From NCBI GenBank assembly GCA_023484515.1, contig JAMDAY010000035.1:1-53486 (forward strand): DNA of 53,486 nt. Reading direction: 5' to 3'. Source of the stretch: Patescibacteria group bacterium (GTDB taxonomy: Bacteria; Patescibacteriota; Doudnabacteria; UBA920). This document shows, in pieces, positions 6,968-31,235 of the stretch (the stretch's first letter is position 1; each line of letters opens with the position of its first letter). A program made the translations under genes and the position numbers. A model generated the notes under the pieces. That model was given only the letters and a program-made list of their open reading frames with translations. It had not been told where the DNA came from and made no database searches.

Positions 6968-7164
6968 TTACTGACGATTGCGAACACAAAAAAATACCGA
7001 TGGAACTGACAAAGGTGGAACACGATATTATTATGGATTTGCGGTCCGCCAAACCGTTTGAAGAAGTGCGGATAACTAAGGATCAGCTAGGGCGGTTTGA
7101 CAGCTACTTATTCGTTTCCACCCAAAAAAAGATATATTCCGGCAGCAAAGCACATTTTTCTTGA
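6964..7164 (+). CDS. Small protein (possibly DUF2292/YezD-like; candidate antiterminator)
   Basis: ATG at 6964 overlapping def stop; helix followed by short beta strands; family call tentative. Confidence 0.45.
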   Translation: MITDDCEHKKIPMELTKVEHDIIMDLRSAKPFEEVRITKDQLGRFDSYLFVSTQKKIYSGSKAHFS

Positions 7165-7276
7165 CAGGATTAAATTTAGGGTTTACTATAAAGAAAATAG
7201 CATATAAATTCCACGGAAAGACCGGGAATCCAACTAACTTGATGCAAATCAGGTTATAGGGTTCCCGGTATTTTTT
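7161..7276 (+). promoter_or_regulatory. Sigma70 promoter + attenuator module 1
   Basis: TTGACA 7161-17 bp-TACTAT 7184; ATTCC-A-CGG-AAAGA-CCG-GGAAT hairpin 7208-7229; terminator ACCGGGAA...TTCCCGGT + T-tract. Confidence 0.75.
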
Positions 7277-7540
7277 ATGGCTAATGGGCAGCAGGAAACA
7301 AAAAGAACTGAACGGATCAAGGCACTGGCGCGCGGTTATTACGGGCAGCATCTTATTGCGTGGCTGGAAGAAATTAAGCTGACTTATTCCGACGTGCGGA
7401 ATGCCAAAAAGCTAGGCATGACATTGGAAACAGCCTGCGCCGTGGCCGGGATTTTGGAAGATGAATTAATTAATCCCCTAAAGCAGTGGCAGGGAACAAG
7501 AGATTCCAAGCCGCAGCCTTCCGGGGAAGAAATGGAGTAA
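7277..7540 (+). CDS. Phage head-region hypothetical protein
   Basis: ORF at start of the head operon. Confidence 0.6.
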   Translation: MANGQQETKRTERIKALARGYYGQHLIAWLEEIKLTYSDVRNAKKLGMTLETACAVAGILEDELINPLKQWQGTRDSKPQPSGEEME

Positions 7541-7542
7541 TT

Positions 7543-7746
7543 ATGCCGGCAACCGTAAATAAAAACTCTAAGGGCGGATATACTGTCCGCACTCCAAACG
7601 GTGTTCACGCGAAGAACACCACCAAAGCAAAGGCCGAAAAGCAAGCTAAATTATTAAACGCCATTGATCACGGCTTTAAGCCGGGTGAAAAACCGATGCA
7701 TTCCAAATCGCAAATGCGCCGGATGATGGCAATGAAAGGCAAGTGA
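7543..7746 (+). CDS. Small basic phage protein
   Basis: ATG 7543 after GGAG; K-rich. Confidence 0.55.
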   Translation: MPATVNKNSKGGYTVRTPNGVHAKNTTKAKAEKQAKLLNAIDHGFKPGEKPMHSKSQMRRMMAMKGK

Positions 7747-7747
7747 T

Positions 7748-7948
7748 ATGCACGGCGGAAAATTTACGTGGATAAATCCGGCCACCAAAGCAACCTATTC
7801 GGAAACCATTAATGATGCTACCGAATCCAAGATTGCTGCGGCCAATGCCCGGGCAGCCACGGCGCTATCTGCAACAACTGCCACGATAGAACTGATTTTG
7901 CCAAACGGCCAAAGGCGCGGCAATTGTTCCGGTGATAAACTTAAATAA
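7748..7948 (+). CDS. Hypothetical protein
   Basis: Tightly packed ORF in operon. Confidence 0.45.
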   Translation: MHGGKFTWINPATKATYSETINDATESKIAAANARAATALSATTATIELILPNGQRRGNCSGDKLK

Positions 7949-8042
7949 TTTTTAATTTTGAGGGCTACGGCAAACCTCATTAAAAACCGACTTATGGGAC
8001 AAAACCCATTTCAAAAATGAAATTAAGGGAAAGGTTTACCTT

Positions 8043-8633
8043 ATGGCACAAGAACCAAACCAAGCTGCCGACTTGGAAAAAGATGACATCGGCATAGACT
8101 TATCGCAAGTCAATAAAGATGCGGAAGAAAATAAGCCGTTGCTGACTGCCGTTGCGCAGCGCGACCATTGGCGTGAGAAAGCCAAAGATCCCAAAACTGG
8201 GAAAACGTATAAGGAGTTATACGAACAGGCTGTTAAACCTAATCAACCAGAGCAGGTTAAGCCTGATTCTCAACCGAAGCCGGATGCTTCGCCACAGCCG
8301 GCAAAACCCGAACAAGTGTCGCAGGATCTTCCAATTAAGGATGTCCTGAAATTGAAAAGCGAAGGGTATAGTGATGCTGAAATTTTAGAGATTGCTGAAC
8401 AGGCAAACTCCATGAAAATTTCCGTATCCGCCTTGCTTAACAATCAGACATTCAAGAAGGGTATTGAAGCAAACCGTGCCGAGAAAAAGGTTAATCAGGG
8501 AACCCCTGCACCCTCCCAACGTGCTGCCTTTAGTCAGAAGGCTAAGTCCATCAAGGACCTAAAAACACCGGCCGAACGTCAGGCTGCGTTTGACGCCGCA
8601 AAGAGGGGAAAACGCTCAAGCGAAAGTGAATAA
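8043..8633 (+). CDS. Capsid scaffolding protein
   Basis: Charged, helical, P/Q-rich; immediately upstream of the capsid gene. Confidence 0.65.
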   Translation: MAQEPNQAADLEKDDIGIDLSQVNKDAEENKPLLTAVAQRDHWREKAKDPKTGKTYKELYEQAVKPNQPEQVKPDSQPKPDASPQPAKPEQVSQDLPIKDVLKLKSEGYSDAEILEIAEQANSMKISVSALLNNQTFKKGIEANRAEKKVNQGTPAPSQRAAFSQKAKSIKDLKTPAERQAAFDAAKRGKRSSESE

Positions 8634-8637
8634 ATAA

Positions 8638-29566: not shown

Positions 29567-29639
29567 ACCAAAATAAAAACGCCGCGGGGGTGCCTAACTC
29601 TCTGCACCCCCGCTAAAACTAATCATTAACATAAATCAA

Positions 29640-29777
29640 ATGTGGCAAAAATATTGCATTGATGGATTCCATTTTTGGTTTCTGCACCACCACTTGATTC
29701 TGACGGCAATCAGCATAATTGCTGGCGCGTGGACAGAAAAGCGCTTTGGCTGGTGGGGATTTTTATTCAACAAATAA
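29640..29777 (+). CDS. 45-aa hydrophobic protein, possible holin-like (not in ORF track)
   Basis: MWQKYCIDGFHFWFLHHHLILTAISIIAGAWTEKRFGWWGFLFNK. Confidence 0.4.
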   Translation: MWQKYCIDGFHFWFLHHHLILTAISIIAGAWTEKRFGWWGFLFNK

Positions 29778-29796
29778 AAATTTAAATTAGAACGCT

Positions 29797-29985
29797 ATGG
29801 ATTCTCAAAAACAAAATGAGATCATGCGATGGGTGAGCTTTGTAATTGTTTCTATCTTACTGCTTATTGCCGGATTCAAAAATTTGAAGGACAATCAGCC
29901 GTATGATAAAACCCTGACAACCCTATTTTTGGTCGTAACCGGCTTTGCGTGGGGGGCAAACCTGTGGCGTTTTTTCAAAAAATAA
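29797..29985 (+). CDS. Holin-like two-TM protein
   Basis: Two TM helices, basic C-terminus, directly upstream of lysin. Confidence 0.55.
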   Translation: MDSQKQNEIMRWVSFVIVSILLLIAGFKNLKDNQPYDKTLTTLFLVVTGFAWGANLWRFFKK

Positions 29986-29989
29986 ATAT

Positions 29990-30982
29990 ATGGATATAAA
30001 ACCAATTATAGAAAAAATATATCCGGAAGGATCCGCAGGCGGCCAGTGCGGCGATTTTGCGCATAAGCTGATAGATTTCCCTTCCATTGGCGATAGTTAC
30101 AGCCAAAAGAAGAAATCGGTTCAGCAATACGGCATTTTGCGCGATTACGTGGGTAACAAATTCCGCCGCGGGGATGTTGTCATAACTGACGAAGGCACTT
30201 TTTTGGGTATTGGATCCGGTCACGTGGCAACAATTTTAGATCCGAAAACTTTGGCCGTGGTGGAAAGCAACTACTTCAAAGATGGTAAAGTGCATTACGG
30301 CCGCAAGGTCCAGCCAAACAGGATCTACGGGGTGATTCGCGGGGCGTATAAGTTTCCGCTAGATTTGCCAAAACTGCTGACGTTAAAAATTTGCTTGCTG
30401 ATGAATTATAAAAAGCCGTGGGGTGCTGTGTATCCCGAAATGCTGCAAGAGTGGTTTTATGAAAATTCCAATCGGACCGTGAAGCTCGAGATCTTTCCGC
30501 TATACACAAACTTCACGGGTATAACTGACCAGGCCAACTACAAGGCCGAAGGGGTAAACGGTCCAAATAATTATTACTTTTATAACGTGCCTTCCCGGGA
30601 ATGGCTAAAGGATACGGTCATGCCGCTGCGCTTTGCCAGCGACAACCAACTGCCGGATCTGACCATCCTGTGCGTATCGAAGCAGGATTGGCGCGGATCG
30701 GTATTCAACGCGGACGGCGCCGCGGAAATTGGCTACTACTACGCCGGCGATGACATGGTGGTGTTGCAGGTGGACGAAGGCGATGTCAGTATGTTCCATT
30801 ACGGCCTGCCGGCGTTCGTCGATTATCTGATCCATGAAATGTCGCACTGGCTTTACGACAAGGCTTTGGACTACAGCCAGCAAGCCGGCACGGACCGCAC
30901 GCACTACTACTATCAGTTGAATCAGATGGACAAGATTTTTAATGATATTAATTTAAAACAATTAATGGTAAACAAAAATTAG
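29990..30982 (+). CDS. Endolysin-like: CHAP domain + zincin (HExxH) domain
   Basis: GQCGDFA, GHVA, VESNY (CHAP triad); IHEMSH in C-half; likely ATG at 29990. Confidence 0.72.
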   Translation: MDIKPIIEKIYPEGSAGGQCGDFAHKLIDFPSIGDSYSQKKKSVQQYGILRDYVGNKFRRGDVVITDEGTFLGIGSGHVATILDPKTLAVVESNYFKDGKVHYGRKVQPNRIYGVIRGAYKFPLDLPKLLTLKICLLMNYKKPWGAVYPEMLQEWFYENSNRTVKLEIFPLYTNFTGITDQANYKAEGVNGPNNYYFYNVPSREWLKDTVMPLRFASDNQLPDLTILCVSKQDWRGSVFNADGAAEIGYYYAGDDMVVLQVDEGDVSMFHYGLPAFVDYLIHEMSHWLYDKALDYSQQAGTDRTHYYYQLNQMDKIFNDINLKQLMVNKN

Positions 30983-30983
30983 T

Positions 30984-31169
30984 ATGGATATACTAACATC
31001 TGCCAGCAAAACGGTGTTTGTCTTGATGGCTTTGGCAACCATCGCAGGTTTGTTTTTAGGGAAGATCGATCCTAAAGACTTTATGATTTTGGCATCAATG
31101 GCTTTTTCCTTCTACTTCGCTTACAAGGGGTCTTCCGCGCCAAATGAACCGCCATTCGCGGGAAAATAG
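30984..31169 (+). CDS. Holin-like two-TM protein
   Basis: Two TM helices directly downstream of lysin. Confidence 0.6.
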   Translation: MDILTSASKTVFVLMALATIAGLFLGKIDPKDFMILASMAFSFYFAYKGSSAPNEPPFAGK

Positions 31170-31175
31170 CTTTTG

Positions 31176-31235
31176 TGATATAATACCCATAGATTCACGG
31201 AAAGACCGAAATCGTATTGATTTCGGTCTTTTTTC
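31176..31235 (+). promoter_or_regulatory. Extended -10 promoter + attenuator module 3
   Basis: TG-a-TATAAT 31176-31184; GATTCA-CGG-AAAGA-CCG-AAATC; terminator AAAGACCGAAATC-GTATT-GATTTCGGTCTTT-TTT. Confidence 0.72.

Follow-up and report, generated by a model that had tools for sequence, protein, structure and literature searches.

The stretch of DNA analysed here (the window, 53,486 nucleotides) is the whole contig JAMDAY010000035.1 of a Patescibacteria group bacterium (assembly GCA_023484515.1; 1,304,462 bases in 36 contigs, host genome 97.8% complete). Its positions 1 to about 33,500 form a phage-like region, which is cut by the contig start and carries nearly all of its genes on the plus strand. 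Within this region, a short motif recurs at three places, each time between a promoter-like element and a predicted intrinsic terminator. The original prediction described these sites as switches in which a small RNA hairpin competes with the terminator, and proposed that they represent a novel, protein-dependent system for late-gene control. The elements of the three sites, together with the genes behind them (open reading frames, ORFs, named using PHROGs and Pfam), are as follows.

Site 1
7161 to 7189, plus strand: sigma70-type promoter TTGACA-17-TACTAT, 10/12 in the promoter scan
7205 to 7224, plus strand: motif TAAATTC-CA-CGGAAAGACCG
7208 to 7229, plus strand: small hairpin ATTCC / bulged A / CGG / loop AAAGA / CCG / GGAAT, predicted fold alone -8.5 kcal/mol
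7221 to 7276, plus strand: predicted intrinsic terminator, two-part stem 7221-7269 of -28.8 kcal/mol, then ATTTTTT
7277 to 9570, plus strand: genes behind the site, namely an 87-amino-acid ORF, small ORFs, a 196-amino-acid ORF and the major head protein
Site 2
19078 to 19105, plus strand: sigma70-type promoter TTGACA-16-TACACT with TG before the -10 element, 10/12
19123 to 19142, plus strand: motif TAGATTC-TT-CGGAAAGACCG
19126 to 19147, plus strand: small hairpin ATTCT / bulged T / CGG / AAAGA / CCG / GGAAT, predicted fold alone -6.0 kcal/mol
19138 to 19181, plus strand: predicted intrinsic terminator, stem 19138-19170 of -22.5 kcal/mol, then TTATATTTT
19194 to 21769, plus strand: genes behind the site, namely a 606-amino-acid putative portal and a SU10-adaptor-like protein
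Site 3
31176 to 31184, plus strand: extended -10 element TGATATAAT, read from the sequence
31190 to 31208, plus strand: motif TAGATTC-A-CGGAAAGACCG
31192 to 31213, plus strand: small hairpin GATT / CA / CGG / AAAGA / CCG / A / AATC, predicted fold alone -2.7 kcal/mol
31202 to 31236, plus strand: predicted intrinsic terminator AAGACCGAAATC-GTATT-GATTTCGGTCTT followed by a T run (TTTTC)

The three sites had been expected to precede head, portal/tail and hydrolase operons, respectively. The first assignment agrees with the major head protein (8638-9570; PHROG 267, E 7.9e-11). The second agrees with the putative portal gene, which is so named from its size, its position and the homologues that adjoin head genes in relatives, and which gave no family match and no PDB match; the product of the following gene (21011-21769) matches SU10_adaptor (PF24175, E 1.4e-6). 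The third does not hold, because the gene with a weak CHAP-domain match (29945-30982; E 0.0012, 19.8 bits, under the Pfam cut-off of 26 bits) lies upstream of site 3.

All three copies of the motif were found exactly where they had been placed. When up to one mismatch is allowed, the 11-mer CGGAAAGACCG matches the window five times, and three of these matches are exact, all on the plus strand, which is at least ten-fold above chance; dinucleotide shuffles of the window gave 0.56 +/- 0.70 matches, and none of 100 shuffles reached five. The whole genome holds no exact copies of the 11-mer other than these three, which all lie on this contig within the prophage, and an extended motif pattern was found in none of 60 related genomes. 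Two further stretches (15.6-16.0 kb and 29.65-29.78 kb) were considered as a possible fourth cassette, but showed no convincing fold (z -1.3).

Using leaders cut before the 3' arm of the terminator, from which the energies of the small hairpins were also obtained, the bulged hairpins of the original prediction could be reproduced. At site 3, the common alignment keeps four outer pairs, three of which are changed on both sides. The full leaders, in contrast to the cut ones, are predicted to fold as terminators (-34.6, -25.0 and -20.4 kcal/mol at sites 1, 2 and 3, with z of -6.4, -4.5 and -5.6), and in each case the predicted stem-loop stands directly before a T (U) run, as is expected of an intrinsic (Rho-independent) terminator. 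The two folds draw on the same strand: the hairpin bases CCG(G/A)(G/A)AAT double as the 5' arm of the terminator at all three sites, as had been claimed. The terminated leader RNA would span the first 45-80 nucleotides. At site 1, the ATG of the 87-amino-acid ORF (7277) lies directly behind the terminator, and at site 2 the ATG of the putative portal gene is at 19194. Since the small hairpins alone are far weaker than the terminator folds (-20 to -35 kcal/mol), read-through would need help.

Related phages were collected by several searches. A loose scan of viral contigs with ATTCN{1,2}CGGAAAGACCG gave at least 114 loci, among which there was one true relative (L056, the same as L118); the other 113 among the loci listed were rejected as chance matches in coding sequence, judged from their context, and longer patterns returned L056 again or nothing. 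L118 is 76-81% identical in nucleotides to positions 1592-7545 of the window. Another relative, L119, was found by a large-terminase search (62% amino acid identity in TerL, syntenic over 15 kb), and a third, L126, has a portal homologue with 45% amino acid identity. A profile of the head protein found seven metagenome loci, 44 viral loci and one genome-contig locus, but just one other, weak match in 400 genomes of the phylum, and the portal protein alone gave 23 stretches in viral contigs, none of which was confirmed. The sequence elements are specific to this phage group.

Three of the relatives, all of them metagenomic phage contigs, carry an orthologous cassette, and these form class A together with the three sites of the window. 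In L118, 25 bases of site 1 (TAAATTCCACGGAAAGACCGGGAAT) are identical to those in the window, while nine of the next 39 terminator bases differ. The cassette of L119 at site 1 consists of TTGACA-17-TATTGT, AATTT/A/CTGG/AAGTA/CCAG/GAATT, a predicted terminator, T7 and ATG. That of L126 lies at site 2, before the portal homologue, and consists of TTGACA-17-TATACT, GCTT/G/CGG/GGAGA/CCG/AGGC, a predicted terminator, TTTTCT and ATG. The loop AAAGA, which had been called invariant, is therefore constant in this phage and its closest relative only, and gives way to AAGTA and GGAGA in the other orthologues. The loop and inner stem are identical in the three diverged paralogues and the loops differ in other phages, which suggests a phage-specific reader.

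Covariation in homologues, which had been named as a test of the original prediction, was present. With the structure of that prediction applied to the six class A sequences from four phages, 93.8% of the hairpin cells pair and six of the eight pairs change on both sides; none of 500 shuffles reached the pairing, the pair count or the covariation score of the alignment, and when the partners were slid by 1-3 columns, just 19-58% of cells paired. In this six-sequence alignment, three hairpin cells are G.U and the extra base falls on the 5' side in every row. The terminator is conserved in the same manner: a consensus fold of site 1 with L118 and L119 has 24 pairs, four of which are changed on both sides. 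Particularly, the change from CCG to CCAG in L119 is compensated twice, in the hairpin (CGG to CTGG) and in the 3' arm of the terminator (CCCGG to CCTGG). The 3' strand of the hairpin is the 5' arm of the terminator in all six class A cassettes, and the predicted folds of these cassettes have the general make-up of an attenuator, with mutually exclusive structures, a common strand and conservation of both. The architecture of two mutually exclusive folds is thus supported, because the orthologues keep both by compensatory changes.

The same alignment was of little use for finding more copies. A covariance model of the six class A sites, of the type suggested with the original prediction, recovered its training sites only; beyond these, the host genome gave E 0.15 at best and 49 other loci (620,345 bases) gave E 0.11 at best, within coding sequence, and in the 87%-complete record of L126 that single site was found. 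With Rfam 15 at the gathering score, there were no matches in the window and none in nine related loci (127,719 bases), and at E<=10 around the three sites there were irrelevant sub-threshold matches only. The leader motif matches no Rfam family, in line with the novelty check that had been proposed. In the literature, judged partly by title and with supplements aside, no description of such a leader element was found.

The order of promoter, motif, terminator and gene holds at all three sites. Each copy had been predicted to follow a good sigma70 promoter, and this is true of sites 1 and 2, but not of site 3, which has an extended -10 element without a -35 element and gave nothing in the two-hexamer promoter scan. 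The site 1 hexamers are kept in the orthologues (TTGACA-17-TATTAT in L118, and the promoter of L119 given above), where the spacers differ, and the L126 promoter scores 11/12. After the head gene, phages of this group have the ordinary order, with the terminator first and the promoter second (for example, in L152, L161 and L168), so that the order in which a stop follows the promoter is specific to these sites. The distance from the -10 element to the hairpin is about 18, 20 and 7 nucleotides at sites 1, 2 and 3, and about 7, 12, 15, 18 and 20 nucleotides across the class A cassettes. Because the overlap is constant while this distance varies, the hairpin is anchored to the terminator and not to the promoter.

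This anchoring bears on two other explanations. In one of them, the hairpin is a processive antitermination site, similar to lambda N/nut or to a site read as RNA by a Q-like factor, and its overlap with the terminator is incidental. As in boxB of lambda nut, a short GC stem carries a purine-rich pentaloop; this small hairpin lies near the promoter, between it and the terminator, and its loop varies from phage to phage, as boxB loops do. In the PR'-qut-tR' region of lambda (6S RNA), a strong late promoter is followed by a close terminator, and the lysogen makes a short RNA until the antiterminator is present. The layout found here resembles this constitutive promoter and terminator, and TA(G/A)ATT is a -10-like sequence in the early transcribed region. 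We nevertheless regard a processive site as unlikely. The nut site acts processively without overlapping a terminator, whereas here the 3' strand of the hairpin is a terminator arm throughout class A and the two folds covary together; there is a stem of 3-4 base pairs with a bulged outer helix, and class A showed no common linear element of the boxA kind. A promoter-anchored Q site would also not be expected to vary in its distance from the promoter by 7-20 nucleotides within and between phages, and lambda has one such unit per genome rather than three.

The other explanation is a DNA operator: a dimeric repressor would bind the 22-bp imperfect palindrome ATTCC-A-CGG-AAAGA-CCG-GGAAT and thereby keep the three late promoters silent in the lysogen. 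The palindrome and its position 7-20 bp downstream of the -10 element would suit such an operator, and symmetric positions would covary under diverged repressors. We consider it very improbable, since the extra base stands on one side only and the three G.U cells break the symmetry of DNA, which favours an RNA hairpin, and since the palindrome keeps a fixed relation to the terminator but no fixed distance from the promoter. In addition, the leaders of the more distant relatives are not palindromic.

In these distant relatives, whose portals are about 25-32% identical, nine contigs hold 12 cassettes of a second type (class B), at the following positions.

L133: 7290 to 7378 and 16225 to 16320
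L143: 2080 to 2166
L161: 3390 to 3473 and 15600 to 15690
L165: 1020 to 1090
L168: 2720 to 2796 and 14160 to 14245
L141: 1455 to 1531
L147: 150 to 252
L131: 6800 to 6883
L124: 2400 to 2477

Each class B cassette has, in order, a strong promoter, the leader G(T/G)GCAATAAAG, a mini-hairpin, 2-4 nucleotides, a short GC-rich terminator and a T run, after which ATG follows at once or within 17 nucleotides. The mini-hairpin of 3-4 base pairs covaries and is present in 12/12, with the stems GGC/GCC, GGT/ACC, GCT/AGC, GAGT/ACTC and GGG/CCC. Most of the cassettes precede the portal gene, and a second copy precedes a gene of about 237 amino acids (L133 and L168) or another gene (L161). The leader sequence G(T/G)GCA can pair with the start of the terminator arm (GGCA/TGCC, GTGC/GCAC, GTGCCA/TGGCA and GGTGCT/AGCGCC). 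This complementarity was assessed by comparing duplex energies with those of shuffled leaders, and the Fisher p value was 0.0005 for class B (n=12) and 0.001 for class A (n=6), compared with 0.51 for ordinary terminators after the head gene (n=17); site 3 failed the test because the fixed window cut its hairpin. The predicted folds of classes A and B have a common topology, in which an outer helix, made with the terminator arm, is followed by unpaired A-rich bases, an inner mini-hairpin and its loop.

In many portal genes of this group that have no cassette, a -10 element lies 6-9 nucleotides before the ATG (for example, L137:1895-1916, L152:7170-7211, L156:2395-2415 and L164:4745-4769). The same spacing was seen at an early gene of the 87%-complete relative G440 (L186, reverse strand, about 2790-2850). 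These -10 hexamers adjoining the ATG suggest the presence of leaderless mRNAs in this phage group.

Proteins that could act on the leaders were searched for in four records, that is, the host genome and three phage records (87%, 18% and 4% complete). The CAT domain (PF03123) was found in none of the four, while the control was positive in 4/14 genomes. Phage_antitermQ (PF06530) was also found in none of them, in a search that left out other Q families and with the prophage cut at the contig start, and there was no phage NusG paralogue in these records; within this scope, both results are points against a processive site. An ANTAR-domain search gave 0/4, with a control that was positive in 0/14 genomes, and no N-like protein was identified, although no search was aimed at N families. 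The early ORFs of G440 gave an HNH match and a sub-threshold VRR-NUC match only, and no other part of the host assembly corresponds to its early regions.

Three small ORFs were also considered as the factor and rejected. The 87-amino-acid ORF behind site 1 encodes a basic helix at its N terminus, but its homologues also occur in loci without a cassette; they were present in every relative examined (49 ORFs across related loci, some of which duplicate one contig). A 74-amino-acid ORF before site 1 also precedes portal genes without a cassette, and a 95-amino-acid ORF (11886-12173) could not be linked to the sites. The latter has a C-terminal C2H2 zinc-finger-like match under the Pfam cut-offs (best E 1.3e-4); one of the models matching it is described as double-stranded-RNA-binding, and the ORF is conserved in L119, L121 and L126.

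We judge the chance to be slightly better than even that the three sites are leaders of prophage late units in which termination is the default and is relieved when the small hairpin is stabilised. Antiterminator/terminator logic is the best reading because the architecture is real, both folds are compensated in orthologues and Rfam has no match. A near-consensus, host-type promoter would fire at each late unit, and the leader RNA would form either a weak two-helix hairpin, consisting of the outer helix, the one-sided bulge, the CGG/CCG helix and the purine-rich pentaloop, or the strong intrinsic terminator. Unaided, the terminator would prevail and RNA polymerase would halt just ahead of the first gene. 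If the small hairpin were stabilised, the terminator would be blocked and the head, portal/tail and site 3 genes would be transcribed. The stabiliser would most likely be an RNA-binding factor specified by the phage, with the bulge and the loop as the features that it recognises. We infer the termination, its relief and the protein agent from the sequence. What has not been borne out is a novel system in the sense of a new kind: the motif is real and undescribed, and the logic is already known.

Several points weigh against antitermination by a stabilised hairpin. No candidate regulator of the leaders emerged from the protein searches. The runs holding the sequence are three DNA contig runs of one study, none of them on record as RNA (they show no differences inside sites 2 and 3). 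The class A alignment is small (six sequences from four phages) and includes three paralogues, and the L118 hairpin is identical to that of site 1. The control with slid partners is a flattering one, because the tested structure was derived from the same sequences. The complementarity is weak in individual cassettes, with p<0.05 in 3/12 of class B, 3/6 of class A and 0/17 ordinary terminators. The U tract can pair with the conserved GGAAAGA too, which would then be an ordinary A-tract. Finally, L126 has no cassette at the site 1 position, and upstream of the portal gene a cassette is present in 10/36 regions and missing in 26/36, so that the cassette is dispensable within the phage group.

The lack of a regulator in the protein searches would suit a device that works without any factor, either as a fixed attenuator (through folding kinetics, with constant read-through) or as a source of terminated small RNAs with a common 5' sequence. 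A promoter, 45-80 nucleotides and a terminator are the anatomy of a small RNA gene as well, and short RNAs terminated in a leader are known, for example, from the E. coli greA leader (PMC2836576). We rate such a device as quite improbable. The first codon lies 0-10 nucleotides behind the T tract in site 1, L118, L119, L126 and most class B cassettes, and the downstream genes would be left without another promoter. In addition, the exact identity of 11-25 nucleotides among the paralogues and L118 exceeds what pairing needs.

Returning to antitermination by a stabilised hairpin, a wider form of it may be considered tentatively, and we regard it as possible rather than probable. Classes A and B may define a new phage antitermination system, whose common topology would comprise a helix P1 supplied by the terminator arm, A-rich bases left unpaired and the mini-hairpin P2. 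The RNA of both classes would then have as its reader a small RNA-binding protein of the phage, with no relation to N, Q, BglG/LicT or NusG, and the system would switch the late genes throughout a group of podovirus-like phages whose hosts are small-genome (candidate-phyla-type) bacteria.

The remainder of the phage region was also examined. It includes a replication-O-like gene, a small terminase, Dam, a weak match to a large terminase, baseplate-like and large tail genes and, at 32541-33491, an integrase gene; the left end of the prophage was not found on other contigs of the assembly. The phage has its own GroES/GroEL pair (2008-3826) and encodes a peptide deformylase (6482-6967). Between the head and portal genes lies a 6.7 kb block (12166-18852) with glycosyl-, methyl- and aminotransferases and a nucleotide-sugar epimerase, and this glycosyltransferase/methyltransferase block is syntenic in L119 and L126. 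A very AT-rich insert (28852-29620) with three ORFs for small membrane proteins on the minus strand interrupts the plus-strand late region, and a strong GC hairpin follows it (29584-29613; -22.4 kcal/mol, z -5.2). Shine-Dalgarno-like sequences are missing before about half of the phage ORFs in the window.

The gene after site 3 (31358-31888) matched no family. Its ORF was called from the ATG at 31358, and the frame is open from 31283 (31283-31888). Upstream of this ATG, the same frame encodes a hydrophobic helix (FKFWPLLWLLAILAALIML) and contains no ATG, GTG or TTG, which may indicate a rare start codon and a membrane-anchored or secreted product. A promoter-like sequence, TTGAGA-16-AAAAAT, lies at 31279-31306.

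Among the known systems, the closest in logic are the ribonucleic antiterminator (RAT) leaders. In the BglG, SacY and LicT systems, a stabilised imperfect hairpin that overlaps the 5' arm of a terminator prevents termination. The leaders found here likewise have a weak imperfect hairpin with unpaired bases that overlaps the 5' arm of a terminator just past the promoter. Unlike RAT leaders, they precede phage late genes and not sugar operons, the hairpin is shorter (22 nucleotides), and no CAT protein accompanies them in the host genome or the three phage records; no resemblance to the RAT sequence was noted. The coat-protein operators of MS2, PP7 and Qbeta are similar in shape only, with a small loop and, a few pairs beneath it, one bulged base, but they control replicase translation, have no terminator partner and are not related in sequence. 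In conAn of Gram-positive conjugative plasmids (PMC8191782), a large RNA element and a processivity protein provide processive, bipartite antitermination. As in conAn, a leader RNA element lies near the start of a long mobile-element operon and would work against terminators; unlike that large element, the one found here is about 22 nucleotides long and local.

In conclusion, the late structural operons of this prophage have near-consensus, host-type promoters, and a compact RNA switch appears to gate them after initiation. To the best of our knowledge, gene timing in phages of small-genome uncultivated bacteria has not been studied by experiment. The three cassettes of 50-110 nucleotides can be moved into reporters, and they can be used as bait for the factor and to mark late operons in metagenomic relatives of the phage. 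If a new antiterminator protein does read them, it would add a family to the short list of N, Q, put RNA, BglG-type and LoaP/RfaH-type antiterminators, and if there is no new protein, the sites would be a tidy case of fixed attenuation that silences the late promoters of a prophage.

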